Shown here: piece by piece, positions 14,782-40,446 of the stretch
How positions within the stretch are numbered: position 1 is the first letter of the stretch
Layout of the letters: each line of letters opens with the position of its first letter
Sequence record: OZ035822.1
Length of the DNA: 44,789 nt
Reading direction: 5' to 3' (one strand)
DNA from: Vectrevirus PDP21P6
Notes under the pieces: generated by a model
Told to the model about the DNA's origin: nothing
Database searches by the model: none
The model's input: the letters and a program-made list of their open reading frames with translations, nothing else
Program-made: the position numbers and the translations under genes

Positions 14782-14797
14782 GTCTCACATGTGAGAC
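14782..14797 (+). repeat. 16-bp perfect palindrome GTCTCACATGTGAGAC (copy 1)
   Basis: exact palindrome, 3 bp upstream of promoter 14800. Confidence 0.8.
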
Positions 14798-14799
14798 TT

Positions 14800-14822
14800 A
14801 TTTACCGGACACTATAGGATAG
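14800..14822 (+). promoter_or_regulatory. phage RNAP promoter (variant)
   Basis: ATTTACCGGACACTATAGGATAG, +1 G at 14817. Confidence 0.6.
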
Positions 14823-14963
14823 CCGTCGGAGACGGGAAAGAAAGGGAAGATAAAGGATATAAAAGGAAGTAATAGGTATTAAAGGTTATATAGGTTATCT
14901 AGGAATACCTATTACCTCCTTCCTTCCTCTTATTACTACTTAGAGGAAGGGCAGATCTAGGTT

Positions 14964-14979
14964 GTCTCACATGTGAGAC
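14964..14979 (+). repeat. 16-bp perfect palindrome GTCTCACATGTGAGAC (copy 2)
   Basis: exact palindrome, 5 bp upstream of promoter 14985. Confidence 0.8.
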
Positions 14980-14984
14980 TTCGT

Positions 14985-15007
14985 ATTTACCGGACAGTAT
15001 AGATAAG
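14985..15007 (+). promoter_or_regulatory. phage RNAP promoter (variant)
   Basis: ATTTACCGGACAGTATAGATAAG, +1 G at 15002; upstream of gene 1.1 homolog. Confidence 0.5.
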
Positions 15008-15032
15008 ACTAACTTACTTTGGAGATTTAACC

Positions 15033-15161
15033 ATGCGTAACTTTGAGAAGATGACCCGTAAAGCTAACCGTTTTGACATGGAAGAAGGGCAGAAGAAAGG
15101 CAAGAAGCTGAATAAACCTGTCCGTGACCGTGCATCTAAACGCGCAGCGTGGGAGTTCTAA
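15033..15161 (+). CDS. gene 1.1-like small basic protein
   Basis: 42-aa ORF MRNFEKMTRKANRFDMEEGQKKGKKLNKPVRDRASKRAAWEF, GGAG RBS; same size and position after origin as T7 gp1.1. Confidence 0.55.
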   Translation: MRNFEKMTRKANRFDMEEGQKKGKKLNKPVRDRASKRAAWEF

Positions 15162-15164
15162 GTT

Positions 15165-15383
15165 ATGGCTAAATATAGAATTAAGACATGCTTAAACAGT
15201 CACGGGCACGAGTGCTATGTAGTACAGCGTAAAGTGTTATGTTTCTTATGGGTGACTTGCATGATACCTATTGGGTTCACTGATACTGAAGCAATCTTCG
15301 GTACAGAAGATGATGCATATAGGTTCATTGCCAAGCGCAGAAAAGGTGATTCTTATAGACACAGAATTATTAAGGTAAACTAA
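15165..15383 (+). CDS. hypothetical protein
   Basis: 72-aa ORF with GGAG RBS. Confidence 0.5.
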   Translation: MAKYRIKTCLNSHGHECYVVQRKVLCFLWVTCMIPIGFTDTEAIFGTEDDAYRFIAKRRKGDSYRHRIIKVN

Positions 15384-17371
15384 TGGCTATTATTAATAAC
15401 ATTCCGTGCCCTGCCTGCCAGAAGAATGGACACGATAAATCCGGCAATCATCTTATGATATTTGATGACGGTGCTGGCTACTGTAACCGTGGTCACTTCC
15501 ATGATAATGGCAAGCCTTACTACCATAAGCCCGAAGGTGGCATCGAGATAACAGAGTTACCTATCACTGGCAACATCAAATATACACCTTCTCAGTTTAA
15601 AGAGATGGAGAAGGAAGGGAAGATAAGCGACCCTAAGTTGCGCGCCATCGCACTTGGTGGTATGCGTATGAAAGACCGTTGGGAGGTCATGAATGAGCAA
15701 GAAAGGGCAGAGCAAGAAGCAGAGTGGAAACTTGATGTTGAATGGTTCCTCACGCTTAAGCGTAAGAATCTTGTTTCCCGACACATTCGCGGCGACATTT
15801 GCGCATTGTATGATGTACGTGTCGGACATGATGAAGAGGGTAGAGTCTCACGGCATTACTATCCACGCTTCGAGAAAGGTGAACTAGTAGGCGCTAAGTG
15901 TCGCACATTACCTAAAGACTTTAAGTTTGGTCATTTAGGTAAACTATTTGGTATGCAAGATCTTTTCGGTATGAATACTTTGTCTCACGTGTTAGACAAG
16001 GGAAGACGAAAGGATTGCTTGCTTATTGTGGGTGGGGAACTGGATGCACTAGCAGCGCAGCAGATGCTCCTTGATTCTGCCAAGGGTACTAAGTGGGAAG
16101 GGCAGCCTTACCATGTATGGTCTGTCAATAAGGGTGAATCTTGCCTTGAAGAAATTGTGCAGAACCGTGAGCACATAGCCCAATTCAAGAAGATTATTTG
16201 GGGCTTTGATGGGGATGAGGTAGGACAGAAGCAGAACCAACAAGCGGCTCGCCTGTTTCCCGGCAAATCCTACATCCTTGAATACCCTTCTGGTTGCAAA
16301 GATGCCAACAAGGCATTGATGGCTGGTAAGGCCAAAGAATTTGTGGATGCTTGGTTTAATGCAAAGTCATCTGATGAAGTCTTTGGTAGCCAGATTAAAT
16401 CTATCGCATCTCAAAGGGATAAGCTCAAGGCTGCACGTCCAGAACAAGGGCTGTCATGGCCTTGGCCTAAGCTAAACAAGGTAACGCTGGGTATCCGTAA
16501 GAATCAGCTTATCATTGTAGGTGCAGGCTCTGGTGTGGGTAAGACTGAGTTTCTCCGTGAAGTAGTTAAGCATCTCATTGAAGAACACGGTGAATCTGTA
16601 GGCATCATTTCTACAGAAGACCCGATGGTCAAAGTGTCCCGTGCTTTTATCGGCAAATGGATTGATAAGCGTATTGAGTTACCACCAACCAACGACCCGA
16701 AAGAAGATGGATACCGTGAGGTGTTCGACTATACCGAGGAAGAAGCTAACGCCGCCATTGATTATGTAGCCGATACAGGGAAGCTGTTTGTAGCTGACCT
16801 AGAAGGTGACTACTCGATGGAGAAGGTAGAGCAGACCTGCCTTGAGTTTGAGGCTATGGGTATTTCCAATATCATCATTGATAACTTAACGGGGATTAAA
16901 TTAGATGAGCGTGCTTTTGGTGGGAAGGTTGGTGCACTTGATGAATGCGTCAAGCGGATTGGTACTATCAAAGACCGACACCCAGTTACTATATTCCTTG
17001 TATCACACCTTACACGTCCTCCGGCAAACCGTACCCAACACGAAGAAGGTGGCGAGGTTATCCTTTCTGACTTCCGAGGCTCAGGGGCTATCGGATTCTG
17101 GGCATCTTACGCCTTGGGGATTGAGCGTAACACAAGAGCTGAAACGCTTGATGAAAGAACTACCACGTACATTTCATGTGTCAAAGACCGCGACCAAGGT
17201 ATCTACACCGGAACCAAGATCATGCTTAAGGGTGACATTCAGACCGGACGTTTGAGAGAACCTCAAGCCCGTACTAGGTCATTTGATACAGGCGAAGCAA
17301 GGCAACAAGAAGTGCCTGATTTACCGGACACTATAGAAGAGACTAACTTCGATGAAGAAAGTGAGTTCTGA
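15383..17371 (+). CDS. DNA primase/helicase (T7 gp4-like)
   Basis: N-terminal zinc ribbon CPACQKNGHDKSG...YCNRGHFH, Walker A GAGSGVGKT, acidic C-terminal tail ending ...NFDEESEF. Confidence 0.9.
   Translation: MAIINNIPCPACQKNGHDKSGNHLMIFDDGAGYCNRGHFHDNGKPYYHKPEGGIEITELPITGNIKYTPSQFKEMEKEGKISDPKLRAIALGGMRMKDRWEVMNEQERAEQEAEWKLDVEWFLTLKRKNLVSRHIRGDICALYDVRVGHDEEGRVSRHYYPRFEKGELVGAKCRTLPKDFKFGHLGKLFGMQDLFGMNTLSHVLDKGRRKDCLLIVGGELDALAAQQMLLDSAKGTKWEGQPYHVWSVNKGESCLEEIVQNREHIAQFKKIIWGFDGDEVGQKQNQQAARLFPGKSYILEYPSGCKDANKALMAGKAKEFVDAWFNAKSSDEVFGSQIKSIASQRDKLKAARPEQGLSWPWPKLNKVTLGIRKNQLIIVGAGSGVGKTEFLREVVKHLIEEHGESVGIISTEDPMVKVSRAFIGKWIDKRIELPPTNDPKEDGYREVFDYTEEEANAAIDYVADTGKLFVADLEGDYSMEKVEQTCLEFEAMGISNIIIDNLTGIKLDERAFGGKVGALDECVKRIGTIKDRHPVTIFLVSHLTRPPANRTQHEEGGEVILSDFRGSGAIGFWASYALGIERNTRAETLDERTTTYISCVKDRDQGIYTGTKIMLKGDIQTGRLREPQARTRSFDTGEARQQEVPDLPDTIEETNFDEESEF
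17319..17341 (+). promoter_or_regulatory. phage RNAP promoter embedded in 3' end of primase-helicase gene
   Basis: ATTTACCGGACACTATAGAAGAG, +1 G at 17336. Confidence 0.6.
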
Positions 17372-17388
17372 TTAGTGTATTTATCAGG

Positions 17389-17419
17389 GCTTGTCTCACA
17401 TGTGAGACAGGCTCTTATT
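17389..17419 (+). terminator. terminator-like hairpin containing palindrome copy 3
   Basis: GCTTGTCTCACATGTGAGACAGGC (core GTCTCACATGTGAGAC at 17393-17408) followed by TCTTATT. Confidence 0.55.
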
Positions 17420-17447
17420 AAGTACATTAAATAACTGGAGATTGATT

Positions 17448-18170
17448 ATGTATAAATTAGCATTGAATGTAGGTGATTATGTTCGTAACATCAATGAAGC
17501 CTCACGTCGTTATCGTTGCCGTGGTGTAGTGGATCATGTAAGTGAGAACATGTACCATGTAGAATATGATGATGGTATTAAGGCTTCTTATCACAAGAAA
17601 ACCGCACATAAATATCTTGAAAAGATTGTAGAGGTAAACAATCAATGTAAGTGCATACATGATGAGGTTTGCGATAAGTGTGCACGTCAGGTAGTTAAAG
17701 CCTTTACCTTTGCTCAACGTTATGGTTCTATGTATGGTGCTGGTCACAAGACCATTGCAGAAGCAGCTTGGAAGACATTGCAGTTTGAGCGTTCAAATGG
17801 ACGACGCACCACACTTAAGAAAGAGCGCCGCAATGTAATCACTGGTAAGACTCAAAGTGAGATGGTTAAGTTATGTGGTACTGCATTAGGCGTGTCACAG
17901 TTTAATACCCGTGCTCTAGGTAAATCTACAGGTCAAGCTATGGTGAAGATTGGCGAAGCTATGATGCACCCGAATGTACCTGTGCGAATCGTGGATGTTG
18001 ACCATGCAATCACAGAGCATGGTACACCACGCCGTGTAGCTAACAATCATTTTGCCGACACTATAGAAGACATTATCCGTAAGCAAGAGTTGAAAGGTCT
18101 TCACATCTTGAATGGTGAAGAATTATTGTACCTCCCTATCGTTACTGAAGAAACCTACGTGAATATCTAA
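17448..18170 (+). CDS. hypothetical protein
   Basis: ATG 17448 with GGAG RBS; 240 aa; Cys cluster CKCIHDEVCDKC. Confidence 0.55.
   Translation: MYKLALNVGDYVRNINEASRRYRCRGVVDHVSENMYHVEYDDGIKASYHKKTAHKYLEKIVEVNNQCKCIHDEVCDKCARQVVKAFTFAQRYGSMYGAGHKTIAEAAWKTLQFERSNGRRTTLKKERRNVITGKTQSEMVKLCGTALGVSQFNTRALGKSTGQAMVKIGEAMMHPNVPVRIVDVDHAITEHGTPRRVANNHFADTIEDIIRKQELKGLHILNGEELLYLPIVTEETYVNI
18059..18081 (+). promoter_or_regulatory. possible weak phage RNAP promoter inside coding sequence
   Basis: ATTTTGCCGACACTATAGAAGAC keeps the ACACTATAGAAG core but has 3 mismatches in the -9 to -13 region. Confidence 0.3.
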
Positions 18171-18180
18171 GGAGTTAATC

Positions 18181-18408
18181 ATGACTAAAGTATTAATCTA
18201 TAAAGCATACAATGAAAAGTGTAAACGCTATGCAGTTGTAGCGCCTAATGGGGTTAAACCTCTTGGTACAACAAAATGTACAGCACTTCAGCTTGCTAAA
18301 ATGAAAGCTGAAAACCAAATGCAGTATGCTGGCTCATGGACAGAGGCAGAGTTTCGTAAGGTAGTTGATGGTGTTGTTGGTAGTTTTATGGTGAAACATG
18401 CAGAATAA
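18181..18408 (+). CDS. hypothetical protein
   Basis: 75-aa ORF. Confidence 0.5.
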   Translation: MTKVLIYKAYNEKCKRYAVVAPNGVKPLGTTKCTALQLAKMKAENQMQYAGSWTEAEFRKVVDGVVGSFMVKHAE

Positions 18409-18583
18409 ACATAGCCTTAAAATGTTCAATGGTCATGAAGACCTGCAAGCACAAATTACTAACCAAGCCTTCCTGTTTGCACAGTTAACTATGGCTGAAG
18501 CAAAGAAGAATAGCCTGACGCGTGAACAGGTTATCAAGGAGGCAACTTGGGAGCCACACCAAGGTAAAATACATGGGCAATAA
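18398..18583 (+). CDS. hypothetical protein
   Basis: 61-aa ORF overlapping upstream stop by 11 nt. Confidence 0.4.
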   Translation: MQNKHSLKMFNGHEDLQAQITNQAFLFAQLTMAEAKKNSLTREQVIKEATWEPHQGKIHGQ

Positions 18584-18614
18584 ATTAACTGTAACACGCA
18601 GTCGATAAGTCAAG

Positions 18615-18645
18615 GGTTGTCTCACGTGTGAGACAGCCTTTTCAT
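18615..18645 (+). terminator. terminator-like hairpin containing palindrome copy 4
   Basis: GGTTGTCTCACGTGTGAGACAGCC (core GTCTCACGTGTGAGAC at 18619-18634) followed by CTTTTC. Confidence 0.55.
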
Positions 18646-18666
18646 CATATTGATTGGAGGTGCATT

Positions 18667-18774
18667 ATGCCACGTGATTATGATTCTGATTGGGACTACT
18701 ATGACTCAATGAATCCAAAACCCGAACGTTCAGATGATTACTACGAAACAGAGGCAATGTATGAAAACTATTGA
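18667..18774 (+). CDS. hypothetical acidic Tyr-rich peptide
   Basis: 35-aa ORF MPRDYDSDWDYYDSMNPKPERSDDYYETEAMYENY with GGAGGT RBS; overlaps DNAP start out of frame. Confidence 0.25.
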   Translation: MPRDYDSDWDYYDSMNPKPERSDDYYETEAMYENY

Positions 18775-21271
18775 TTGGAAGAAGGAAGCAGAAGGGCGCA
18801 TCCTAGTGATGGACGCCGAAGCTAAAGGTTTGCTTGATGCTATCCGCTATGGCCATCGTGAAGATGTACACATCATTTGCTGCATGGATTTGCTTACTAC
18901 AGAGGAGTTCTTATTCTTTGACCCATATGAGATGCGTGACCCTGAAGCAAGAGAACACCTGAAGGAATGGGAAGGACATCAAGATGGAACCTTGGTTGAC
19001 GGTGTTAACTTCCTGAAGCATTGTGAAGCTATTGTGTCACAGAACTTCCTAGGGTATGACGGCCTTCTCTTTGAGAAAGCATTCCCTGATATTTGGAAAG
19101 GCTTTAACTATACCGAGAAGCGCGGCAAGGGCAGACTCCGTGCTGACCTGTGTCCTATCCGTGTTGTCGACACACTGGTAATGAGTCGCCTGTTAAACCC
19201 CGACAGACGTCTTCCTCCGCAAGCTTATGCCAAGGGCATGGGTAACGTTGCCCCTCACTCAATTGAGGCGCACGGCATTCGTATAGGCCGCTATAAGCCG
19301 GAGAACGAAGACTGGTCTAAACTAACCGACCACATGGTTCATCGTGTACGTGAGGACGTGGCAATCGGGCGTGACCTGTTCCTCTGGCTATACAACGGAG
19401 AATGGACGGAGCACAAACGCCGTGGCGTGAACAAACGCACTGGCCTAGGGATTGAGACAGCCTTCCACATGGAGTCCATTGTGGCGCTGGAGATGAGCCG
19501 TCAGGCAGAGCGTGGATTCCGTCTGGATATAGACAAGGCGTTAGCGCGATGCAAAGAACTGGACGCTAAGATTGATGAGACAGTCGCAGCGTTCCGCCCT
19601 CACATGCCTATGCGTATCAAGTCTAAACCTTTTAAACCGGAAGAAAAGAATGAAGTATGCCAACGCGCAAATGAGTATGGAGCTAGCAACAATATACCTA
19701 CTGTCCTTGACCCCTCTCTCTTTCTTCACACAGAGAGACGAGGAGATCGCAAGACAATATGGAGTGTCACTACTAAGTCTGGTGATTGGTCAGCTAGTGT
19801 CAAGAAAGACTTTCCTCACCTTAGAGGAAACCGTAATGACACGCCAAGCATCAAGTGGATTGGCGCTTACTCGCCTGTTACTTTCGAAGAGATTCCCTTG
19901 GGTAACAGGGATACAGTTAAGCAAGTGCTCTATGATTATGGATGGAAAGGTGTTGAATTTAACGATACCGAGCAAGCGCATCTGGATGAGCACGGAGTAT
20001 TACCCAAACCTTGGAGTGGAAAGATAAATGAGAAGTCCCTTACTTTATGGCAGGAAAGAGCCGCACGTGAAGGTAAAACAGTCCCTGATTGGTGCTTGGG
20101 TATCGCTGAATGGTACATTCTCGTTAGCCGTCGCGGACAGATACTCAACCGTGGTGACGTTGAAGCCTTCGATCAAAAAGGGGCGTGGCCCTCGCAGGCT
20201 GGTGTACGAAAGTGTCGTGGCCTTGTACCTGTAGCATTTAACAAGGAGCTAGGAATCAATGCGCAGCAATACTACGAAAGGTATGGATGTTGGCCTACGT
20301 CTGACAAAGATGATGGAGAGTGGCGTGTGCCAGGCAATGCTGTTACTATTGGTACTAATACGTTTCGTATGCGTCATCGTAACATTGTTAATATTCCTTC
20401 CCGTGGGTTGTATCCTCTACGTGATTTATTCATAGCTAGCAAAGGTAAAATGATACTCGGATGTGATGGCGCGGGTCTTGAGCTTCGCATCTTAGCCCAT
20501 TTCATGGGTGATCCTGAGTATATTGATATTGTCTTGAATGGCGATATTCACTCACACAACCAAGCGAAGGCTGGATTGCCCTTACGTGACACTGCGAAAA
20601 CATTTATCTACGCTTTTCTCTACGGGTCTGGCATACCAAACCTTGCCGCTGTATGTGGCATGACTGAAGCACAGATGAAAGAGTGTGTCGCTCGCTTTGA
20701 AGTAGAGCTACCTCACTTAGCTAAGCTTAAGGAGGGAGTGGAATCTGCTGCTTCACAATTTGGGTACATGCACGCTGTAGATGGGCGCTGGGGTCGTGTA
20801 CGTGTTAGTAATGGTGAGATTAAGATTCACACCTGTCTTAATGTACTCCTCCAGATGACCGGTTCTCTCACTATGAAGTACTCAAAAGTGAAAGCACTAG
20901 CTACCATGCGTAAAGAGGGCGTGGCTCTTGATGCTAATGGTAATCCTGCTATGCTTGTCGACTATCACGATGAGTGGCAGATGGAGGTGCCTGAAGACGA
21001 AGTGTTAGAAATTCGCTACTCTATTCCTTCCTCTGAATGGAAAGAAGAAGAGAAAAGGCAGTATCGTGATAGCGAAGGACGCATGTGGTCTGCTCCTAAG
21101 GTGGTTGAAGGTAATCCAAAAGAAGATGAAGAGGTCACTGTACGTCGTCGTTATCATCGTGCTGGTGAAATCCTAGCTGAGTCTATTACTTGGGCAGGTG
21201 AATATCTTAAGCTTCGTATCCGTATGGATGGCGAATATATGCTTGGATATTCATGGGCTGAGACACACTGA
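18761..21271 (+). CDS. DNA polymerase (family A, T7 gp5-like)
   Basis: ATG 18761 with GAGG RBS; motifs DGAGLELRILAHFM, RDTAKTFIYAFLYGSG, YHDEWQMEV. Confidence 0.95.
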   Translation: MKTIDWKKEAEGRILVMDAEAKGLLDAIRYGHREDVHIICCMDLLTTEEFLFFDPYEMRDPEAREHLKEWEGHQDGTLVDGVNFLKHCEAIVSQNFLGYDGLLFEKAFPDIWKGFNYTEKRGKGRLRADLCPIRVVDTLVMSRLLNPDRRLPPQAYAKGMGNVAPHSIEAHGIRIGRYKPENEDWSKLTDHMVHRVREDVAIGRDLFLWLYNGEWTEHKRRGVNKRTGLGIETAFHMESIVALEMSRQAERGFRLDIDKALARCKELDAKIDETVAAFRPHMPMRIKSKPFKPEEKNEVCQRANEYGASNNIPTVLDPSLFLHTERRGDRKTIWSVTTKSGDWSASVKKDFPHLRGNRNDTPSIKWIGAYSPVTFEEIPLGNRDTVKQVLYDYGWKGVEFNDTEQAHLDEHGVLPKPWSGKINEKSLTLWQERAAREGKTVPDWCLGIAEWYILVSRRGQILNRGDVEAFDQKGAWPSQAGVRKCRGLVPVAFNKELGINAQQYYERYGCWPTSDKDDGEWRVPGNAVTIGTNTFRMRHRNIVNIPSRGLYPLRDLFIASKGKMILGCDGAGLELRILAHFMGDPEYIDIVLNGDIHSHNQAKAGLPLRDTAKTFIYAFLYGSGIPNLAAVCGMTEAQMKECVARFEVELPHLAKLKEGVESAASQFGYMHAVDGRWGRVRVSNGEIKIHTCLNVLLQMTGSLTMKYSKVKALATMRKEGVALDANGNPAMLVDYHDEWQMEVPEDEVLEIRYSIPSSEWKEEEKRQYRDSEGRMWSAPKVVEGNPKEDEEVTVRRRYHRAGEILAESITWAGEYLKLRIRMDGEYMLGYSWAETH

Positions 21272-21281
21272 GTTATACTCA

Positions 21282-21305
21282 AGGTCACTTACGAGTGGCC
21301 TTTAT
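21282..21305 (+). terminator. terminator-like hairpin after DNAP
   Basis: AGGTCACT-tacg-AGTGGCCT (one G-U pair) followed by TTTAT. Confidence 0.4.
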
Positions 21306-21329
21306 GGATAACTTAACTAAGGAAATATT

Positions 21330-21590
21330 ATGATTAAATACACTGCTTATCAGTTAACTAAAGATCGTAAGATAGGTGTTGAGGTTAAAGCTTGGAATGA
21401 AGGACACATCACTGTAGTCATAGAGTGTCGCCAAGATAATGGTATGATATTAAGAAGCTACCGTTGCTTCACCAAATTACGCTGCAAAGATTTAACTGAA
21501 GAATTATTCTTACGTTGTATTGTTGAATCTATTAAGCTTATTAGACCTTACGCTAAGAAAGTTGTAGGCAATGTCACAGTAGTACATTGA
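21330..21590 (+). CDS. hypothetical protein
   Basis: 86-aa ORF. Confidence 0.5.
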   Translation: MIKYTAYQLTKDRKIGVEVKAWNEGHITVVIECRQDNGMILRSYRCFTKLRCKDLTEELFLRCIVESIKLIRPYAKKVVGNVTVVH

Positions 21591-21612
21591 TTTACTGGAC
21601 ACTATAGAAGGA
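21590..21612 (+). promoter_or_regulatory. phage RNAP promoter
   Basis: ATTTACTGGACACTATAGAAGGA, +1 G at 21607, followed by AT-rich CCTAGG-containing leader. Confidence 0.7.
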
Positions 21613-21676
21613 AAGCCTAGGTAACCTAGGTTTATAAGGTAGTATAGGTAATTAAGTAAATATAGGAGATATAAAT

Positions 21677-22054
21677 ATGTCTATGGTAACTACTCTGGTA
21701 TTCGTGGCTCAATACTTTCGTGGCTTGGCGACTAAGTTCAAGAACAAAGCTATTAAGCATATTGAAAACCGCATCTCTGCAATAGAAGACGAGCAAGTCC
21801 AAGTAGAGGAACATCGTAGTTCTCAGATGATTGACCTGCATAACCGTCTGTACAAAGATCGTGATGAGATGCGTCACCGTCATGCGAAGGAAGTTGAAGA
21901 CATGCTTAACCGCCATGCGGAAGAACAAGCTAAGTTGGAAACTACTTTCCATGAGAATAAACGCAGCATTGCATTAGTGCATCAAGCTGCATCTGACAGT
22001 CTGAAGAAAGAGATTGTTATGCTGGAGATTGAACTGGACAACCTGACTAAGTAA
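21677..22054 (+). CDS. hypothetical predicted coiled-coil protein
   Basis: 125-aa ORF with AGGAG RBS. Confidence 0.5.
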   Translation: MSMVTTLVFVAQYFRGLATKFKNKAIKHIENRISAIEDEQVQVEEHRSSQMIDLHNRLYKDRDEMRHRHAKEVEDMLNRHAEEQAKLETTFHENKRSIALVHQAASDSLKKEIVMLEIELDNLTK

Positions 22055-22063
22055 GGAGTTATA

Positions 22064-22360
22064 ATGGAAGAAGTAATTCAAGCTAAACATGTAGGTATCA
22101 TCTTTCGCGATTTAGAGCAGCGTAAAGTTGCAGGTCACACTCGTCTGGCTAAAGAGGAAGACACAGCAATCACTACTGTGGAGCAAGCAGATGCCTATCG
22201 TGGTCCAGAGTTCACTGAAGGTGAAACTTGTCACCAATTGAGCCTGTCACTTTGTGACACTATGGCTAGTGTAAATGTGCAAGAAGTTGAAGACGGTGAA
22301 TGTGTTAGTTACATTTACCCTATCGATACTATTGCACGTATTAAGGTAGTTCATAAGTAA
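22064..22360 (+). CDS. hypothetical protein
   Basis: 98-aa ORF with AAGGAG RBS. Confidence 0.5.
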   Translation: MEEVIQAKHVGIIFRDLEQRKVAGHTRLAKEEDTAITTVEQADAYRGPEFTEGETCHQLSLSLCDTMASVNVQEVEDGECVSYIYPIDTIARIKVVHK

Positions 22361-22381: not shown

Positions 22382-22437
22382 TAGGTCGGCTTAGTTCGGC
22401 CTATGATTGTGTAGTGTAACAATAGGAGACTAAATAA

Positions 22438-23244
22438 ATGGCACGTGGTGATTTTGATTTTGGTGCTCAGGTTACTAAAGCTGAAGGTAAAGTATTTAAG
22501 AACCCTGAAGTGGGTGATCATGAAGCAGTAATCTCTGGCATCATTCATGTGGGTTCCTTCCAAGATATCTTTAAGAAAGGCAATACCACTGAAGTTAAGA
22601 AGCCAGCAAACTTTGTTCTTGTTAAGATTGTCCTGATGGGTGACGATGACAAGAATGAAGATGATTCTCGCATGGAACAATGGATGGCTGTGCCTCTGAA
22701 ATCTGGTGACAAGGCAACCTTGACTAAGTTCCTAAATGCAGTTGACCCTAAAGAATTGCTTGGTGGTTTCGATGACTTCATCGGTGAGTGCCTGACTGCA
22801 ACGATGGTTGGATCTGGTGACAAGAATGACGATGGCTCATTCAAGTATGTTAACTGGAAAGGCTTTGGTGGTATGCCGGAAAAGCTGAAGAAACTTGTTA
22901 TTGCTCAGGTTGAAGAAGAAGGTCTGTCTATGACAGGTCATATTACTTTCGACAAGCTGACCAAAGAAATCCTTGATGATATTCCTGCTAACTTGGTGCG
23001 TCAATACTTCCTTAATGAGACACCTCGTGGTAAGAACCTGTCTGTTGCTGGTTCTCACGTAGAAGAAATCATTAAAGCTGCTCGTGAAGAAGACCCTGAG
23101 TGGAAGAAGGCTAAGAAGAAAGATGACGAGGATGCTACTCCAGCTAATCGTAAGTCTCTGGATACTGGCGAGTCTATTCCACAGGAAGTGCCGGAGGCAG
23201 AGGACACTCCTGCACCGGAAATGGATGAAGACGCGGAATACTAA
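22438..23244 (+). CDS. hypothetical protein with acidic C-terminal tail (ssDNA-binding protein candidate)
   Basis: 268 aa, AGGAG RBS; C-terminus ...PAPEMDEDAEY resembles the acidic aromatic-terminated tail of T7 gp2.5. Confidence 0.4.
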   Translation: MARGDFDFGAQVTKAEGKVFKNPEVGDHEAVISGIIHVGSFQDIFKKGNTTEVKKPANFVLVKIVLMGDDDKNEDDSRMEQWMAVPLKSGDKATLTKFLNAVDPKELLGGFDDFIGECLTATMVGSGDKNDDGSFKYVNWKGFGGMPEKLKKLVIAQVEEEGLSMTGHITFDKLTKEILDDIPANLVRQYFLNETPRGKNLSVAGSHVEEIIKAAREEDPEWKKAKKKDDEDATPANRKSLDTGESIPQEVPEAEDTPAPEMDEDAEY

Positions 23245-23473: not shown

Positions 23474-23489
23474 GTCTCACGTGTGAGAC
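23474..23489 (+). repeat. 16-bp perfect palindrome GTCTCACGTGTGAGAC (copy 5)
   Basis: exact palindrome (CACGTG centre variant), 15 bp upstream of promoter 23505. Confidence 0.8.
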
Positions 23490-23527: not shown

Positions 23528-23577
23528 AAGAATTTTAATAGGCGATAATGCCACAACCAACAAAAGGAGAATTTAAT

Positions 23578-23949
23578 ATGTTCAAGATTGAAACTATCGT
23601 AAACCGTGTTGTTAAAGGTGCTGCTCTGGTATCCGTTGAGTCTTTCATTATCGTCGATGAAGCTGATCAACTGGTAGCTGGTACTAAGGCTTACGATACC
23701 CGTGAAGAAGCTCAGGCTAAGATTGACAGCATGGGTAACTTCGCTGCTGGTCTGGAGTTCGCTCGTGCTTGCTTCCCTGAGCAGGCTGACAAAGCTCAGA
23801 TTGGTAAGGCTAATATCGTAGCTGAATATCTGGATTGGGTTGCTGCTGGTAAACCAGTGAAAGAAGTTAAGGCTGCTGAAGAAGCTGAAGCTCCAGCAGA
23901 AGAAGTAGCTGCGCCGGAAACTCCGGTAAGCGAAGAGGAAGAGTTTTGA
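23578..23949 (+). CDS. hypothetical protein with acidic C-terminal tail
   Basis: ATG 23578 with AAGGAG RBS; 123 aa ending ...ETPVSEEEEF; own promoter and own terminator. Confidence 0.55.
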   Translation: MFKIETIVNRVVKGAALVSVESFIIVDEADQLVAGTKAYDTREEAQAKIDSMGNFAAGLEFARACFPEQADKAQIGKANIVAEYLDWVAAGKPVKEVKAAEEAEAPAEEVAAPETPVSEEEEF

Positions 23950-32301: not shown

Positions 32302-32336
32302 TGAATTATCAATTTGATTTATAAGGAGGTTTATTA

Positions 32337-33542: not shown

Positions 33543-33549
33543 TACCTAT

Positions 33550-33583
33550 GCCCTATCTACCTTGCGTAGGTAGGGTTCTTTTT
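33550..33583 (+). terminator. T-phi-like intrinsic terminator after capsid gene
   Basis: CCCTATCTACC-ttgcg-TAGGTAGGG then TTCTTTTT; near-identical design to 24008-24041. Confidence 0.7.
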
Positions 33584-33596
33584 GTTAGGAGGATTC

Positions 33597-34334
33597 ATGC
33601 CTGTAATTAAACAAACCAGTAAAGTAGGACACATGATGGAAGATGTGGCCTTCCAGATTATTGATAGCAAGCTTGAAGCGGTCAACTTGTGTATGCGAGC
33701 TATTGGTCGTGAGGGTGTGGATTCTCTCGACTCAGGCGATCTTGATGCAGAAGATGCAAGTAAGATGATTGATATTGTATCCCAGCGCTTCCAGTATAAT
33801 AAAGGCGGTGGCTGGTGGTTCAATCGTGAACCTAACTGGCAGCTTGCACCAGACACGAACGGTGAGATTAACTTGCCTAATAACTGCCTAGCTGTATTGC
33901 AGTGCTACGCATTGGGTGAGAAGAAAGTGCCTATGACTATGCGTGCAGGTAAGCTTTACTCCACATGGAGTCACACCTTTGATATGCGCAAGCATGTTAA
34001 TGCTAATGGCATGATTCGTCTTACCTTACTCACCTTACTACCCTACGAGCATCTACCTACAAGTGTAATGCAGGCTATTGCCTATCAATCTGCTGTAGAG
34101 TTTATTGTGTCTAAGGATGCAGATCAGACTAAGCTAGCCACTGCGCAGCAGATAGCCACTCAGCTTCTTATGGATGTACAATCTGAGCAAATGTCACAGA
34201 AGCGATTAAACATGCTGGTACATAACCCCACTCAGCGTCAGTTTGGTATCATGGCTGGTGGCTCTCAGAATGTACCTGCTTACTCTCATTCACCTTATGA
34301 AAGTTGGGCGCTCCGTCCGTGGGAGGATCGTTAA
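33597..34334 (+). CDS. tail tubular protein A (gp11-like)
   Basis: ATG 33597 with AGGAGG RBS; 245 aa; conserved position after capsid. Confidence 0.8.
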   Translation: MPVIKQTSKVGHMMEDVAFQIIDSKLEAVNLCMRAIGREGVDSLDSGDLDAEDASKMIDIVSQRFQYNKGGGWWFNREPNWQLAPDTNGEINLPNNCLAVLQCYALGEKKVPMTMRAGKLYSTWSHTFDMRKHVNANGMIRLTLLTLLPYEHLPTSVMQAIAYQSAVEFIVSKDADQTKLATAQQIATQLLMDVQSEQMSQKRLNMLVHNPTQRQFGIMAGGSQNVPAYSHSPYESWALRPWEDR

Positions 34335-36736
34335 TGGAAGTACAAGGTTCATTAGGTAGACAAATCCAAGGGATTAGCCAGCAGCCGCCAGCGGTACGCT
34401 TGGATGGTCAGTGCACAGCTATGATTAATATGATACCTGATGTAGTGAATGGTACTCAATCACGCATGGGTACAACTCATATTGCAAAGATACTTGATGC
34501 GGGGGCTGATGACATGGCTACTCATCATTATCGCAGAGGTGATGGTGATGAAGAGTATTTCTTCACGTTGAAGAAAGGACAAGTTCCTGAGATATTTGAT
34601 AAGTATGGGCGCAAATGTAATGTGACTTCACAAGATGCACCTATGACTTACTTAACTGAAGTAGTCAACCCAAGGGAAGATGTGCAATTTATGACTATTG
34701 CAGATGTAACCTTTATGCTTAATCGAAGAAAGGTAGTTAAAGCTCGTACTGATAAATCACCAAAGGTTGGAAATAAGGCGATTGTCTTCTGCGCCTATGG
34801 CCAATATGGGACTACTTATAAAATTATAATTGATGGCAATGTAGCAGCTACACGTACCACCCCTGACGGTGGTGAAGCGGGTCAAGTTGTAAATATAAGA
34901 ACAGAAGACATTACAAACCACCTTTATGATAGTTTACAGCAATGGAGTGGTATTAATGCCTACAACATCCAGAAAGATGGAACAAGTATCTTTATTGAAA
35001 AGAAAGATGGTAGCTCTTTTAATATTACTACAGAAGATGGTGCAAAAGGTAAGGACTTAGTAGCCATAAAGAACCGTGTAGCCTCTACCGACCTTCTACC
35101 CTCCCGTGCACCTGAAGGTTACAAAGTGCAAGTATGGCCTACTGGAAGTAAACCGGAGTCACGTTATTGGCTGGAAGCAGAGCCAAAAGAGGGGAATTTA
35201 GTATCATGGCAAGAGACAGTAGCGGCGGATGTTTTACTTGGCTTTGATAAAGGGACCATGCCGTATATTATTGAGCGTACAGGTATCATTGATGGTATTG
35301 CTCAATTTAAGATTAGGCAGGGTGATTGGGAAGACCGCAAGGTGGGGGATGACCTCACTAACCCTATGCCGTCTTTCATTGATGAAGAAGTTCCTCAGAC
35401 AATTGGCGGAATGTTCATGGTGCAGAACCGTTTATGCTTTACAGCAGGTGAAGCTGTCATTGCATCACGCACTTCCTACTTCTTTGATTTCTTTCGTTAT
35501 ACGGTTATCTCTGCATTGGCAACTGACCCATTTGATATTTTCTCAGATGCTAGTGAAGTCTACCAGCTAAAACATGCAGTGACCTTAGATGGCGCTACCG
35601 TGTTGTTCTCTGATAAGTCACAATTCATACTGCCAGGCGATAAGCCTTTAGAGAAGTCAAATGCACTGCTTAAGCCTGTTACAACATTTGAAGTGAACAA
35701 TAAAGTGAAGCCAGTAGTAACTGGTGAATCGGTAATGTTTGCCACTAATGATGGTTCTTACTCTGGTGTACGAGAGTTCTATACAGACTCTTATAGTGAC
35801 ACTAAGAAGGCACAAGCAATCACAAGTCATGTGAATAAACTCATCGAAGGTAACATTACCAACATGGCAGCAAGCACCAATGTCAACAGGTTACTTGTCA
35901 CTACCGATAAGTATCGTAACATAATCTACTGCTACGATTGGTTATGGCAAGGCACAGATCGTGTACAATCAGCATGGCATGTATGGGAGTGGCCTATGGG
36001 TACAAAGGTGCGCGGTATGTTTTACTCTGGTGAATTACTTTATCTACTCCTTGAGCGAGGTGGTGGCGTCTATCTGGAGAAGATGGACATGGGGGATGCA
36101 CTGACCTATGGTTTGAATGACCGCATCCGAATGGATAGGCAAGCAGAGTTGATCTTCAAGCATTTTAAAGCAGAAGATGAGTGGAGATCTGAACCACTTC
36201 CTTGGACTCCTACTAACCCAGAACTTTTGGATTGCATCTTAATAGAAGGGTGGGATTCATATATTGGAGGTTCTTTCCTATTCAAATATAACCCTAGTGA
36301 TAATACCTTGTCTACAACCTTTGATATGTATGATGATGACCGCGTAAAAGCGAAGGTTATTGTTGGGCAGATTTACCCTCAAGAGTTTGAACCTACACCT
36401 GTAGTCATTAGAGACAGGCAAGACCGTGTATCCTATATTGATGTACCTGTTGTGGGATTAGTTCACCTTAATCTTGATATGTATCCTGATTTCTCCGTGG
36501 AGGTTAAGAATGTGAAGAGTGGTAAAGTACGCAAGGTGCTAGCGTCAAACCGTATAGGTGGTGCTCTCAACAATACAGTAGGTTATGTTGAACCAAGAGA
36601 GGGTGTCTTCAGATTCCCACTGAGGGCTAAGAGTACGGATGCTGTTTATCGTATTATTGTAGAATCACCTCACACATTCCAGCTCCGCGATATTGAGTGG
36701 GAAGGGAGCTACAATCCAACCAAAAGGAGGGTCTAA
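34334..36736 (+). CDS. tail tubular protein B (gp12-like)
   Basis: 800 aa, start overlaps gp11 stop (TAATG). Confidence 0.85.
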   Translation: MEVQGSLGRQIQGISQQPPAVRLDGQCTAMINMIPDVVNGTQSRMGTTHIAKILDAGADDMATHHYRRGDGDEEYFFTLKKGQVPEIFDKYGRKCNVTSQDAPMTYLTEVVNPREDVQFMTIADVTFMLNRRKVVKARTDKSPKVGNKAIVFCAYGQYGTTYKIIIDGNVAATRTTPDGGEAGQVVNIRTEDITNHLYDSLQQWSGINAYNIQKDGTSIFIEKKDGSSFNITTEDGAKGKDLVAIKNRVASTDLLPSRAPEGYKVQVWPTGSKPESRYWLEAEPKEGNLVSWQETVAADVLLGFDKGTMPYIIERTGIIDGIAQFKIRQGDWEDRKVGDDLTNPMPSFIDEEVPQTIGGMFMVQNRLCFTAGEAVIASRTSYFFDFFRYTVISALATDPFDIFSDASEVYQLKHAVTLDGATVLFSDKSQFILPGDKPLEKSNALLKPVTTFEVNNKVKPVVTGESVMFATNDGSYSGVREFYTDSYSDTKKAQAITSHVNKLIEGNITNMAASTNVNRLLVTTDKYRNIIYCYDWLWQGTDRVQSAWHVWEWPMGTKVRGMFYSGELLYLLLERGGGVYLEKMDMGDALTYGLNDRIRMDRQAELIFKHFKAEDEWRSEPLPWTPTNPELLDCILIEGWDSYIGGSFLFKYNPSDNTLSTTFDMYDDDRVKAKVIVGQIYPQEFEPTPVVIRDRQDRVSYIDVPVVGLVHLNLDMYPDFSVEVKNVKSGKVRKVLASNRIGGALNNTVGYVEPREGVFRFPLRAKSTDAVYRIIVESPHTFQLRDIEWEGSYNPTKRRV

Positions 36737-37458
36737 TGGCTATAGGTTCAGCCGTTATGGCTGGTATGTCTTCTATTGGTAGTATGTTTGCAGGTAGCGG
36801 TACAGCAGCCGCTGCTGGAGGTGCTGCCGCAGGTGGCGGAGGTTTGCTAGGTTCATTAGGTGGCTTCCTAAGCGGTTCCACTGCTGGCTTCTCTAATGCG
36901 GGTCTTCTTGGTGCTGGCCTTCAAGGGTTAGGATTGATTGGTGATCTCTTTGGTGGAAGTGATGAAGCCAAGGCCATGAAGAAAGCACAAGAAGAGCAAT
37001 GGCGGCAGCAGCTTATTGCTACACAAGAGGCGTACAAGACAGTGGCAGACGCAGAGCGTTCTGCTGCTAAACAATATCATGCAGATGCAATAAGCAATCA
37101 GGCTTCACTACTACAGCAGCGAGCACAGGTTGCATTACTAGCAGGTGCTACTGGTACTGGTGGTAACTCTGTATCTTCTATGCTGAATGACTTAGCAGCA
37201 GAGGGCGGGAGGAACCAGAGTACAATTATTGATAACTATGAGAATCAGAAGATTAACTTCACTAATCAGCTTAAGTCCATCCAGCGAGGTGGGCAGATGC
37301 AGATGCGTGAGTTTAAGAAACCTTCTGCTGTGAGCACCTTGGTTCAAGGTATCCCAAGTCTGGCTTCTGCTTATGTAACTGGTAGCAAGTCGGGTATGGC
37401 TTTAGGTAAAGCTCTAACGGATTCTCGTACATACTCATCTGGAACAAGAGGTATTTAA
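36736..37458 (+). CDS. internal virion protein (gp14-like)
   Basis: 240 aa, Gly/Ala-rich N-terminal region; start overlaps upstream stop. Confidence 0.6.
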   Translation: MAIGSAVMAGMSSIGSMFAGSGTAAAAGGAAAGGGGLLGSLGGFLSGSTAGFSNAGLLGAGLQGLGLIGDLFGGSDEAKAMKKAQEEQWRQQLIATQEAYKTVADAERSAAKQYHADAISNQASLLQQRAQVALLAGATGTGGNSVSSMLNDLAAEGGRNQSTIIDNYENQKINFTNQLKSIQRGGQMQMREFKKPSAVSTLVQGIPSLASAYVTGSKSGMALGKALTDSRTYSSGTRGI

Positions 37459-40406
37459 TGGCAATTGAGCGACAAGCAGTACAAGGTCTGCCACAAGTGC
37501 AGGCCACTTCTCCTAATGTCATGACCTTTGCACCTCAACAAGTGGGAGGTGTGGAGGCGGGCGTAGCTTCTACCTCCGGTAGTCGATTTATCGAAGACCT
37601 TATTCGAGCAGCCAGCAGTGTAGCTGATGTTACCACTGGTATCCTTAATCAGAAGATTGAGGAGGATAAGGTTGTTCAAATGGAACGGGCATATAATGGA
37701 TTAATGCCTTCTGAGGATGCAACTCGTGGTGGCGCTCGTGCTAACATGCTTGTCAAAGCTCAACTGCTAGCTAATGATGAAGCAGCACGAATGAAAGACA
37801 TGGCTACTCGTTTCCAAGGAACAGATGACGAGTGGACACAACTCATGGTTGACTCTCGTAATGAGATGCAGAATAAGCTGTTCCAGCAATACCCTGAGTT
37901 GCAAGGTGACAAAGATACTATGCGTATGGTCACTAATGTCTTCCAAGAACAGCAGCCTCAGATTTGGGCTACACGAACCCAGCATAAACTTGACCGTGAA
38001 CAAGCAGACCGTGAGGACACCTTTGACGGGCGAGTGGCTTCTACTTGGGATTCTAGTATTGACCCAGAGGCTTCTGGTTATGCCCTACAGGAGCGAATCC
38101 GCGAGGGGTTTACTCAAGGGCTATTACCTGAGCAGATGCATAAGAAGCTGGTAGAGCGAGCTATTTCACTTGCTCAGGGTGGTGATATTAGCATGGCTGA
38201 AGCCTTGAAGTACGTGAAGGACGATAAGGGTGTTTCTGTCTATGCTAAGAATCCGCAGCTTATCACAGCTATCACTAATGGTAATGCAGTTTGGGCTAGG
38301 AATAATGTTGCTGATGTGACTCGCATGTCTTTTGAAGTCAAAGAGTCCTATCTTGCAGGTGACTTGACGGATGAAGAATTACTGGAGCGAGCACAGCACA
38401 TTAATAGCCTGACAGGGAACTCTGTCTTCTCTAATCCAGAACTAGAAGCACTGATGCGACAACGAGCTAAGCAGAATGCAGAGCTAGGTGCAATGCAGGA
38501 TATGCGACGTGAACTTTACTCTGATCGCATGACTGGCTTCCAAGGTAAGACAGATAAAGAGAAGAAAGCTTACGTTGACGTTATCAAACAAGATAGCCAA
38601 CTTTATGCAGACCAGCAAATCAAACAACGTGGCTTGGACCCTTACAGTCAAGAGGCTGAAGCTATTCGTGGTGCAGTGGAAGTGCAGCGCCTGCAATTCA
38701 TGAACTCCAAAGGCTTAGTGGATGATACCTTTGAGTCTCGTATCAAAGCCATGGAGTCTATGCTATCGCCTGAGCACTTTGCCAGTGGCGAACCACAGGA
38801 GTTAATGACTATTCGTCAGTTGTGGGAACAGTTACCAGAAGAAAGCCGAGGTGTCTTTGGTGATACGGTGAATGGCTATATGGATAACTACAACACTGCA
38901 TTACAAATGGGAGAGACGCCTTTGCAGGCTGCAAGGTTTGCCCGTGAAGCACAGCAGAAATTCTCTCGTACTGAGAAAGAAACCAAGAAGTTCAACTCAG
39001 CTATTGGAGATGCACTGGATGAGGTATCGGGTGCTGGCTGGTTTGATGGTAAAACCGAAGTGTCTGACTTAGGTAAAGCTATTGCAGAAGAAGAGTTACG
39101 AGCTAAGGCCAATATGCTGTGGTCTAGCGGTATGCGTAACATGGATTCCATCAAGAAGGCTTTAATTACTTGGGGCAATAAACGCTACACTCAATCAGAG
39201 GATGCAAAGACTTCCGGTGGTTATTTCATTAAAGGTGATTACACTTCTGCATCTGACATGCTTATGTCTGTTGGGAAAGGTGTAAACCCTACCGATGTAC
39301 CTCTGGCGCTTGGTAGGTATGTAGAAACACAAATGCCAGAATTGAAGAAGGAACTTCAAGAGTGGGAAACTAAGGATGATGTATACATTGATTACAATGA
39401 ACAGAAAGGTACTTTCGTGATTCGTGCTGGTGCAGCAGGTCGCCCTCTTTCTGGAGTAATCCCTGTCACCTCTTTAGATACCACTTCACTGCTAGACTCT
39501 GCCTATCAGAAGAAAGTAGAAGAACGAGATAAAGGTGAATATGTTCACCCATATCGTACAGATATCGGTACACAAGAACCTATGCCAGCTAAGCCAACTG
39601 CCAAGGATATTGGTAAATTTGGACTAGCTAATTTCCTCATGTCTTCTGCCTTTGCTTCTGGTGAGAATCTACCTTCTAACTTCGAGATTAACTATAGAGG
39701 CAATATGCAACAATTCTATGACAAGCTAGCTATGGATGAGAATAAAGATAAAGTTGGCTTTAATAAGGCAACTGGAACCTTTACTCCATATAAAGACGCT
39801 CGCGGTGAGTCTATCGGTTACGGTCATTTCTTAACGGAAGAAGAGAAGCGAAACGGGTATATTAAGATTGGTGATGAACTAGTTCCCTATCGAGGGTCTA
39901 TGTCTCAGCTTACAGAGAGCAAGGCTCGCGCTCTTATGGAGCAAGATGCTAAGAAGCATGTGCCTCCTACTCGTGACTGGAAGATTCCGTTTGACCAGAT
40001 GCATCCTGCACAGCAACGTGGCTTGATGGATTTAACCTACAATTTAGGTAAAGGTGGAATCCAGAACTCACCGCGTGCTCTTGCTGCATTCAAAGCTGGT
40101 AAGCTTACGGAAGGCTTTATCGAAATGCTGGGCACTGCATCAAGTGAAGGTAAGCGTATTCCTGGCCTACTGAAGCGACGCGCTGAGGCATACAATATGG
40201 CATCTGCTGGTGGTGTGCCTAAGATTACCGAAGTGGAGACTCGTGAAGATGGCTCCATGTGGGTTAGGTTTGGTGGACCTATGCCAGCAGGTTCTGTCTC
40301 GGCATGGACTCATAAACGTATTGGCGAGGATGGTTGGTATCAGGTTTATGAGTCTGCACCTACCAAGTTAGCTAAAGGTTCTAAGGTAGGTAAAGTTAAG
40401 TTGTAG
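37458..40406 (+). CDS. internal virion protein (gp15-like) with C-terminal GH24-like lysozyme domain
   Basis: 982 aa; C-terminal segment YKDARGESIGYGHFLT ... LMDLTYNLGKGG ... GLLKRRAEAYN resembles T4-type lysozyme. Confidence 0.8.
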   Translation: MAIERQAVQGLPQVQATSPNVMTFAPQQVGGVEAGVASTSGSRFIEDLIRAASSVADVTTGILNQKIEEDKVVQMERAYNGLMPSEDATRGGARANMLVKAQLLANDEAARMKDMATRFQGTDDEWTQLMVDSRNEMQNKLFQQYPELQGDKDTMRMVTNVFQEQQPQIWATRTQHKLDREQADREDTFDGRVASTWDSSIDPEASGYALQERIREGFTQGLLPEQMHKKLVERAISLAQGGDISMAEALKYVKDDKGVSVYAKNPQLITAITNGNAVWARNNVADVTRMSFEVKESYLAGDLTDEELLERAQHINSLTGNSVFSNPELEALMRQRAKQNAELGAMQDMRRELYSDRMTGFQGKTDKEKKAYVDVIKQDSQLYADQQIKQRGLDPYSQEAEAIRGAVEVQRLQFMNSKGLVDDTFESRIKAMESMLSPEHFASGEPQELMTIRQLWEQLPEESRGVFGDTVNGYMDNYNTALQMGETPLQAARFAREAQQKFSRTEKETKKFNSAIGDALDEVSGAGWFDGKTEVSDLGKAIAEEELRAKANMLWSSGMRNMDSIKKALITWGNKRYTQSEDAKTSGGYFIKGDYTSASDMLMSVGKGVNPTDVPLALGRYVETQMPELKKELQEWETKDDVYIDYNEQKGTFVIRAGAAGRPLSGVIPVTSLDTTSLLDSAYQKKVEERDKGEYVHPYRTDIGTQEPMPAKPTAKDIGKFGLANFLMSSAFASGENLPSNFEINYRGNMQQFYDKLAMDENKDKVGFNKATGTFTPYKDARGESIGYGHFLTEEEKRNGYIKIGDELVPYRGSMSQLTESKARALMEQDAKKHVPPTRDWKIPFDQMHPAQQRGLMDLTYNLGKGGIQNSPRALAAFKAGKLTEGFIEMLGTASSEGKRIPGLLKRRAEAYNMASAGGVPKITEVETREDGSMWVRFGGPMPAGSVSAWTHKRIGEDGWYQVYESAPTKLAKGSKVGKVKL

Positions 40407-40417
40407 TACCTAACTCA

Positions 40418-40446
40418 AGGCTTGTCTCACATGTGAGACAGGTCTT
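40418..40446 (+). terminator. terminator-like hairpin containing palindrome copy 6
   Basis: AAGGCTTGTCTCACATGTGAGACAGGTCTTT (core GTCTCACATGTGAGAC at 40424-40439). Confidence 0.5.

Follow-up and report, generated by a model that had tools for sequence, protein, structure and literature searches.

The genome of Vectrevirus PDP21P6 (sequence record OZ035822.1) carries a dispersed 16-bp palindrome, with the exact pattern GTCTCACRTGTGAGAC, that is conserved in two phage subfamilies and whose variants track a helix in an early phage protein. We consider it probable, at roughly 0.65, that this palindrome is the operator of a dimeric, sequence-specific DNA-binding protein encoded by the phage itself, a reading that draws on co-variation between protein and DNA sequences. 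The most economical explanation would be that SP6-like phages possess a regulator of the ParB/KorB structural class and a matching set of operators, a pair not described before; three of the operators would also form the tips of RNase III-type hairpins. The record was analysed as one strand of 44,789 nucleotides (hereafter the window), which is a circularly permuted complete genome of the K1E/K1-5-like type (Vectrevirus, Molineuxvirinae). The physical left end of the genome lies near 8610, with a collapsed terminal repeat at 8610-8912 that was aligned to both ends of K1-5.

Palindrome copies and their conservation

The exact pattern occurs at six sites in the window (14782, 14964, 17393, 18619, 23474 and 40424) and not once in 100 dinucleotide-preserving shuffles, in keeping with the claim of an earlier sequence-only reading that the copy number is far beyond chance. 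That reading had described six perfect palindromes; there are indeed six exact copies, but only the four with an AT centre are perfect, since a GT centre at 18619 and 23474 confines complementarity to the 7-bp arms. Two further copies with one mismatch each, at 9234 and 15982 (Table 1), are both kept in relatives and bring the total to eight sites, none of them expected by chance. All six exact copies are intergenic, as had been proposed. This includes the copy at 40424, inside which a listed open reading frame with a GTG start at 40433 begins: the homologous K1-5 gene, that of gp36, has its ATG 47 nt past K1-5's own copy, which makes the equivalent ATG at about 40472 the true start. The solitary arm GTCTCAC is found at one site only in the genome (15845-15851) and GTGAGAC never stands alone, against a chance expectation of about two to three of each arm per strand, so that isolated half-sites may be avoided.

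The palindrome belongs to a family defined by a GTNNNAC arm, a centre of 2-3 nt and a complementary arm, present at 6-10 copies per genome and at orthologous positions in 14 or more phages. These occur throughout Molineuxvirinae and also in Colwellvirinae, with E. coli, Vibrio and Pseudomonas among their hosts, and the lack of conservation in relatives that would have told against a function was not seen. No motif copy was found in the T7 genome. K1-5, K1E and R4596 carry the identical word in the same places as the window, and Erwinia phage Era103 has GTCTCAC..GTGAGAC as in Vectrevirus. Other lineages have their own versions: GTCYAAC-RY-GTTGGAC at orthologous positions in SP6; GTCCAAC..GTTGGAC in Lelliottia phage phD2B and two Klebsiella phages; the 17-mer GTCCAAC-ANT-GTTGGAC, plus one 16-mer, in Proteus phage Pm5460; GTCTAAC..GTTAGAC in Vibrio phage BD5; and GTCTCAC-RNY-GTGAGAC in Colwellvirinae (nine copies in Vibrio phage phiA318, eight to ten in Pseudomonas phage Nerthus). 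A comparison of 110 sites in 14 genomes shows almost no variation at arm positions 1, 2, 6 and 7, lineage-dependent bases at positions 3-5 and, in every 16-mer, a purine-pyrimidine centre. Among the IMG/VR matches listed, multiple copies with such centres are confined to SP6-like contigs, and matches elsewhere are mostly single and attributable to chance.

Copies embedded in genes point, at the level of codons, to selection on the DNA word itself. At the primase-helicase copy, relatives read S-N-V-L-D with their own variant, and Vectrevirus has the left arm of its lineage, GTCTCAC, at the price of an N-to-H substitution (S-H-V-L-D); in the right arm GTTAGAC persists, since a change to GTGAGAC would introduce a TGA stop. 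One conserved position in the RNA polymerase gene reads V-S-N-V-L-D with the local variant in most phages and V-S-H-V-L-D in Era103. In phiA318 the same position reads V-S-R-C-E-T, which accommodates a 17-mer, and phages 15E36.1 and D530 keep this peptide with a synonymous compensatory pair (GTC..GAG to GTT..GAA) that matches their GTTTCAC variant. The window's own RNA polymerase copy, in the region 13450-13470, has decayed to ACCGCTAACGTGTTAGAT. Recoding of polymerase or primase genes in phage engineering would destroy such embedded copies.

The left-end copy stands 68 bp upstream of the -35 hexamer of the first early promoter, which is sigma-70-like (host-type), and in K1-5, SP6, KlebK44, Nerthus and 15E36.1 an orthologous copy precedes the corresponding promoter by 12-80 bp. 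Copy 14782 follows the terminator behind the RNA polymerase gene by 43 nt, an arrangement that recurs in K1-5, K1E, SP6, KlebK44, Era103, phiA318, Nerthus and BD5. The promoter next to copy 23474 has its counterpart in K1-5, SP6, K30, KlebK44 and phiA318, with a copy about 14-20 bp upstream. Around copy 14782, CCGGTAA (14756-14762) and TTACCGG (14803-14809) form a 7-bp inverted repeat, of which TTACCGG is part of the phage promoter; this pairing is partly kept in K1-5 and SP6.

Three copies were correctly placed just upstream of phage promoters by the sequence-only reading, at distances that prove to be 2, 5 and 15 bp rather than 3-15 bp, and two of these copies flank the putative origin. Such positions could mean that the phage RNA polymerase uses the copies for pausing, for termination or as upstream promoter elements, or that primase or origin factors recognise them; GTC, with which the palindrome arms begin, is the T7 primase recognition core, and a simple terminator scan weakly flagged the bare cores at 14782 and 14964. 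We find this explanation hardly credible. Nine of the 12 phage promoters in the window have no upstream copy, promoter spacing varies from 0 to 15 bp, some copies lie within genes or upstream of host promoters, and the lineage variants at arm positions 3-6, together with their co-variation with a protein helix (below), would be left unexplained. Polymerase pausing or termination, one of the options raised earlier, gains no support: the core-only copies, without a U-tract and with a stem of only 6 bp (-5.7 kcal/mol), lie upstream of promoters or within genes.

Table 1. Palindrome copies, hairpins and the candidate protein gene in the window, with copies in the RNA polymerase genes of other phages
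Feature	Position	Strand	Details
Left-end copy	9234..9249		GTCTCACACGTTAGAC, one arm mismatch; about 625 bp from physical left end
Candidate palindrome-binding protein gene	11134..12018	+	294 aa; just upstream of RNA polymerase gene
Core-only copy	14782..14797		2 bp upstream of phage promoter 14800-14822
Core-only copy	14964..14979		5 bp upstream of second phage promoter, 14985-15007
Coding-sequence copy	15982..15997		GTCTCACGTGTTAGAC, within primase-helicase gene; codons S-H-V-L-D
Two-tier hairpin	17372..17430	+	tip 17393-17408; -30.2 kcal/mol, z -9.1; antisense -14.9
Two-tier hairpin	18599..18656	+	tip 18619-18634; -26.2 kcal/mol, z -6.6; antisense -14.7
Core-only copy	23474..23489		15 bp upstream of phage promoter 23505-23527
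Two-tier hairpin	40403..40461	+	tip 40424-40439; -26.1 kcal/mol, z -4.8; antisense -22.2
RNA polymerase gene copy	L253:4686		conserved position
RNA polymerase gene copy	L258:10863		conserved position
RNA polymerase gene copy	L259:10914		conserved position
RNA polymerase gene copy	L129:5754		conserved position

Candidate reader protein and helix-arm co-variation

Every motif-bearing phage encodes, directly ahead of its RNA polymerase gene, a homolog of the early protein that we put forward as the reader of the palindrome (K1-5 gp6, SP6 gp7; PHROG 4571, with no function annotated), and no homolog was found in T7. A first homology search returned near-identical Vectrevirus proteins only; a second, with a Colwellvirinae query, widened the set, and an alignment of 57 sequences was used for an AlphaFold2 model. 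The model has an N-terminal domain (residues 3-122; predicted local distance difference test score 83-93) with a helix-turn-helix (HTH) formed by helices 46-57 and 61-74, an acidic disordered linker (126-191), a coiled-coil helix (195-231) and a confident, J-like C-terminal domain (239-293). As modelled, the N-terminal domain appears to be an HTH of the KorB/ParB fold. Foldseek against PDB listed VirB and KorB, without significance, and a PDB sequence profile search with this domain gave noise only. Pfam yielded weak matches to DUF3102, the name that UniRef gives to the homologs, and matches in BFVD were exclusively to uncharacterised DUF3102 phage proteins. Two further features of the protein were observed: the J-like domain has GYGEGH in place of the HPD motif, and residues ~160-170 of the acidic linker include a conserved A-P-W/F motif resembling peptides of the single-stranded DNA-binding protein (SSB) tail type.

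Residues 63-66 (Q63, x64, Y65, K66) in the segment K-A-Q-x-Y-K-L-M track arm positions 3-6 across about 14 lineages. The helix QxYK goes with the arm GTCTCAC in Vectrevirus, Era103, phiA318, Nerthus, HJG, L231 and L261, and QCYN/H (Y/F-N; Y-H in SP6) with GTCYAAC in SP6, K30, Klebsiella, Lelliottia and Proteus phages, BD5 and about ten IMG/VR contigs. The rarer combinations are QAYR (AKTQAYRLM) with GTYCCAC in L255, QASK with GTTTCAC in 15E36.1 and D530, WTYK with GTCTAGC in L257 and HTYR with GTAACAC in L256. The Vectrevirus protein carries K although it is far closer to N-type proteins (about 80% identity) than to the K-type protein of Era103 (about 52%); at least one switch is therefore independent of overall phylogeny. 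Conversely, GTCTCAC is retained between proteins that are 35-50% identical wherever Q, Y and K are retained. When the arm variant was predicted from the helix alone and then checked, the prediction was right for D530 (GTTTCAC), for the Aeromonas phage HJG (GTCTCAC) and for L261 (GTCTCAC); a fourth prediction concerned P0181, a 9.7-kb contig that ends before the region that normally holds copies.

In the AlphaFold2 model the co-varying residues open the second HTH helix, which would place them where recognition helices usually contact bases. Lysine tends to prefer guanine and asparagine adenine, though this is a heuristic only, and the exchange of K for N together with G.C for A.T fits that preference. 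The two suggestions of the sequence-only reading that bear on this point have both gained ground: a sequence-specific factor rather than generic terminators agrees with a lineage-specific, deeply conserved motif and with the presence of a candidate reader, and a dimeric DNA-binding protein now has a putative phage-encoded counterpart with an HTH, a coiled coil and a co-varying helix.

Under the operator reading, each 7-bp arm (GTCTCAC) of the proposed operator duplex GTCTCACATGTGAGAC would be read by one HTH domain, and its specificity for arm positions 3-6 would be set by Q63, Y65 and K66, where the second HTH helix begins, as co-variation and fold together suggest. The two DNA-binding domains would be joined via the long flexible linker and the coiled coil, an arrangement that would explain why centres of 2 bp and of 3 bp are tolerated alike. 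The host polymerase transcribes its gene early, and the protein would occupy eight sites: one upstream of the first early promoter, three directly upstream of phage promoters (two of these behind the RNA polymerase gene), one within the primase-helicase gene and three at gene boundaries. Because the operator is self-complementary, it would also give an RNA hairpin in sense transcripts, and at three sites this hairpin would be extended into T7-type hairpins for RNase III processing or stability.

RNA hairpins and competing explanations

The copies at 17393, 18619 and 40424 are the tips of two-tier hairpins, each with a 13-bp upper stem, an asymmetric internal loop and a lower stem of 9-12 bp, on the sense strand only (Table 1). 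Extended hairpins at these three copies had been noticed before, and they prove to be longer than then described. The first follows the primase-helicase gene, 57 nt downstream of a promoter start at about 17336; the second, with flanks AGUCAAGGG...CCUUUUCAUCAU, lies upstream of the DNA polymerase gene; and the third lies between two internal virion protein genes. RNAalifold predicted 23 pairs at 40424 from eight genomes, seven of them with compensatory changes, and found covariation at hairpin 17393 across ten genomes; compensatory changes affect both lower and upper stems of the orthologs.

The hairpin flanks ACUCAAGG...CUUUAUGA match those of T7 RNase III sites. The match is exact at 40424 and its orthologs, where ACUCAAGG...CUUUAUGAU is identical to the conserved flanks of T7 R0.3, R0.5, R1.1 and R18.5, and degenerate at 17393 and 18619. 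We take the coordinates of the T7 sites to be those of the T7 map, said to derive from the 1983 work of Dunn and Studier; the T7 hairpins themselves were confirmed by folding. Window positions 40408-40456 and T7 (L132) positions 858-902, 1434-1480, 5853-5897 and 36822-36866 have the flanks ACTCAAGG...CCTTTATGA in common and, as T7 and SP6-like phages are otherwise very divergent, this points to an ancient common origin or a strong convergent constraint.

RNase III-type processing, another of the earlier suggestions, accords with the architecture of the three extended copies and fails for the other five. The core-only copies at 9234, 14782, 14964, 15982 and 23474 have stems of 4-6 bp (-1.2 to -5.7 kcal/mol), too short for RNase III substrates, whose stems span at least about 11-13 bp, and BD5 and Era103 have no extended copies. 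Such processing is, on this comparison of sequences, plausible as a second use of three copies, not as the explanation of the whole family. No Rfam family was found in the window at gathering thresholds. The three long hairpins went unflagged in the terminator scan, and the U-rich sequence on their 3' sides belongs to the lower stems; the orthologous hairpin of one relative carries a terminator annotation made with ARNOLD.

Several observations weigh against the operator reading. A ParB/Srx N-terminal CTPase domain was not seen, in that the model opens at the HTH and Pfam gave no ParB-type match; no ParA-like gene was seen in annotated relatives, and a KorA partner is not evident. Genomes in which 16-mers and 17-mers occur together (Pm5460, 15E36.1 and D530) are unusual for a dimeric operator, and the flexible linker would have to account for them. 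K1-5 (L003:9570-9585) and the Salmonella phage K30 (L128:6652-6667) each hold one copy of another lineage's variant, of SP6 type in K1-5 and of Vectrevirus type in K30. Non-Watson-Crick arm pairs in the 14 genomes comprise 20 G.U against 5 A.C, with A.C only in left-end or coding-sequence copies, an excess that suggests selection on a sense-strand RNA hairpin at all transcribed copies, core-only ones included. A C-to-T bias on the non-template strand could equally give this excess; the plus strand of the window is C-poor.

These last figures bear on the possibility that the copies are primarily RNA hairpins, acting as processing or stability elements in sense transcripts through RNase III or another hairpin-specific factor, with the helix-arm co-variation coincidental or the protein binding an RNA stem. 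The copy positions parallel what we take from the T7 map to be R1, R1.1, R4.7 and R13. Arm changes run from C-G through U.G to U-A, loops are 2 or 3 nt long, and the three extended copies combine two-tier folds, T7-type flanks and compensatory changes with sense strands that fold far better than the antisense. In VIB04, a T7-like vibriophage, palindromes that resemble RNase III sites and one another are likewise scattered over the genome (PMC11707656). We nevertheless judge this account quite improbable: it meets the short core-only stems, the want of extended copies in BD5 and Era103, left-end copies that precede the first promoter and the absence of a matching Rfam family, and it leaves arm variants that track a KorB-fold HTH helix unexplained. 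RNase III is, moreover, conserved across hosts and so cannot account for lineage-specific arms.

The foreign copies raise a different possibility, that copy-and-paste or gene conversion among short repeats at module boundaries keeps the copies uniform, as with T4-type promoter-stem-loop cassettes or repetitive extragenic palindrome (REP)-like elements, with no dedicated reader. T7-like phages recombine readily, copies lie at gene-module boundaries, and the SP6-type copy in K1-5 falls exactly at a mosaic junction, with a K1-5-like 5' flank and an SP6-like core and downstream gene; the sequences suggest that palindrome sites are recombination boundaries between gene modules. Conversion seems very unlikely to us, since 16 bases are very short for it, coding-sequence copies are reshaped only as the reading frame permits (which indicates selection over simple patching), GTCTCAC is unchanged between such dissimilar proteins and the arm variant can be predicted from the protein helix.

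Known systems, possible roles and wider implications

The operator reading has its closest parallel in KorB and its 12 O_B operators on plasmid RK2, which are also many, short, palindromic and dispersed, some right upstream of promoters and others far off, and are read by a ParB-family HTH. In the KorB-operator structure, two DNA-binding domains sit on separate half-sites without mutual contact and are dimerised elsewhere, via a distant domain and a flexible linker. The phage system differs in the missing CTPase domain and KorA-like partner, in a coiled coil and J-like domain in place of the KorB C-terminal dimerisation domain, in an operator of 16-17 bp rather than 13 bp and in its replicon, a lytic phage of the T7 supergroup with its own single-subunit RNA polymerase. 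The sopC site has the same layout as the phage palindrome (7-bp inverted arms and a 2-bp centre, 16 bp in all). The SopB-sopC system of the F plasmid, with the dispersed centromere repeats of prophage N15, and ParB-parS likewise have multiple copies clustered around the replication region, and in ParB and Noc specificity likewise switches via a few helix residues; in contrast to these systems, the lytic phages show no ParA/SopA ATPase and no sign of partition or spreading, and their copies double as RNA hairpins.

The T7 RNase III sites (R0.3, R0.5, R1.1, R4.7 and R18.5) compare with the copies at 17393, 18619 and 40424 in their two-tier hairpin with asymmetric internal loop and in the common flanks ACUCAAGG...CCUUUAUGAU, and they too are intercistronic, near promoters and alike within one genome. 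They differ in that the apical stem of the SP6-type hairpins is a lineage-specific palindrome and in that five of the eight copies have neither lower stem nor flanks. In VIB04, another Autographiviridae genome with dispersed, mutually similar, hairpin-capable palindromes, these trigger DdmABC (Lamassu) defence (PMC11707656). The VIB04 palindromes resemble T7 RNase III sites, and no cognate phage binding protein is known for them. Given this triggering, SP6-type palindromes may also shape host range.

Site placement resembles the KorB operator classes, with copies at the early promoter, at the first phage promoters past the polymerase-gene terminator and at gene boundaries, and after terminators in Colwellvirinae; by analogy, this suggests transcriptional control or insulation. 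As its most likely role, though at clearly less than even odds, we picture the protein as a KorB-like multi-site regulator or boundary element that would provide early-promoter feedback and control or insulate the first middle promoters. A role in marking the replication origin region, or in recruiting partners via the J-like domain, seems unlikely; it would draw on that domain and on the clustering of sites around the putative origin. A more ambitious picture, which we hold with considerable doubt, is that SP6-like and Colwellvirinae phages, unlike T7, possess a genome-wide operator network in which one early protein with HTH, coiled coil and J-like domain acts at 8-10 palindromes (early promoter, origin-proximal promoters and gene boundaries). 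Control at the DNA level, by insulation or by origin definition with chaperone or replisome recruitment, would there be coupled to RNA processing, as the palindromes are also the tips of RNase III-type hairpins. One or two helix substitutions would have sufficed, time and again, to reprogram the specificity, with all sites changing in concert, even those in essential genes.

In textbook accounts, gene control in the T7 supergroup relies on a switch of polymerase, on promoters and RNase III sites and on one or two terminators, but not on sequence-specific DNA-binding regulators. If the operator reading is true, the conserved operator/regulator pair would supply phages of two subfamilies with a layer of control that this picture lacks, and a ubiquitous, uncharacterised early protein (DUF3102-like, PHROG 4571) would be assigned a role. 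Phages in wide use are among those concerned (K1E, K1-5 and Klebsiella phages as therapeutic agents, SP6 as a biotechnological tool), and the lineages offer a natural protein-DNA specificity series, with K, N, H, R, S and W variants and matched sites. A literature search with the exact 16-mers and descriptive terms found neither the repeat nor a function for the protein described, although the original SP6 or K1-5 genome papers may mention the repeat.

Other candidates were considered and rejected. Host factors such as CRP or MetJ have no consensus match and would leave the lineage variants unexplained; a restriction-type site fits the centre ACRYGT, which equals AflIII, but is broken in 17-mers. 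T7-primase GTC sites would leave the inner arm positions unaccounted for, an upstream promoter element of a general kind is at odds with the promoters that have no copy, and the repeats are too short for a cruciform or SbcCD target.

PHROG and Pfam scans of ten uncharacterised middle-gene products gave no functional hint. Two middle proteins, encoded at 22438-23244 and 23548-23949 of the window, have acidic C-terminal tails whose last residue is aromatic (...DEDAEY and ...SEEEEF, respectively). These tails resemble the polymerase-binding tails of T7 gp2.5 and gp4; by this analogy the two proteins are probably an SSB and another replisome partner.

Two further repeats were noted among the IMG/VR sequences. 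A 222-kb contig of jumbo-phage size (IMGVR_UViG_3300037042_002125; L066:2801-5534), without a homolog of the window proteins, has six copies of GTCC[AC]ACAGGTTGGAC within 3 kb, with the centre AG, and represents a different repeat family. Six contigs unrelated to SP6-like phages (L138, L139, L189, L212, L222 and L223) carry paired GTCTCAC-(CA/TG)-GTGAGAC elements 42-73 bp apart, which, from their sequences, look like the operator pairs of another phage group.

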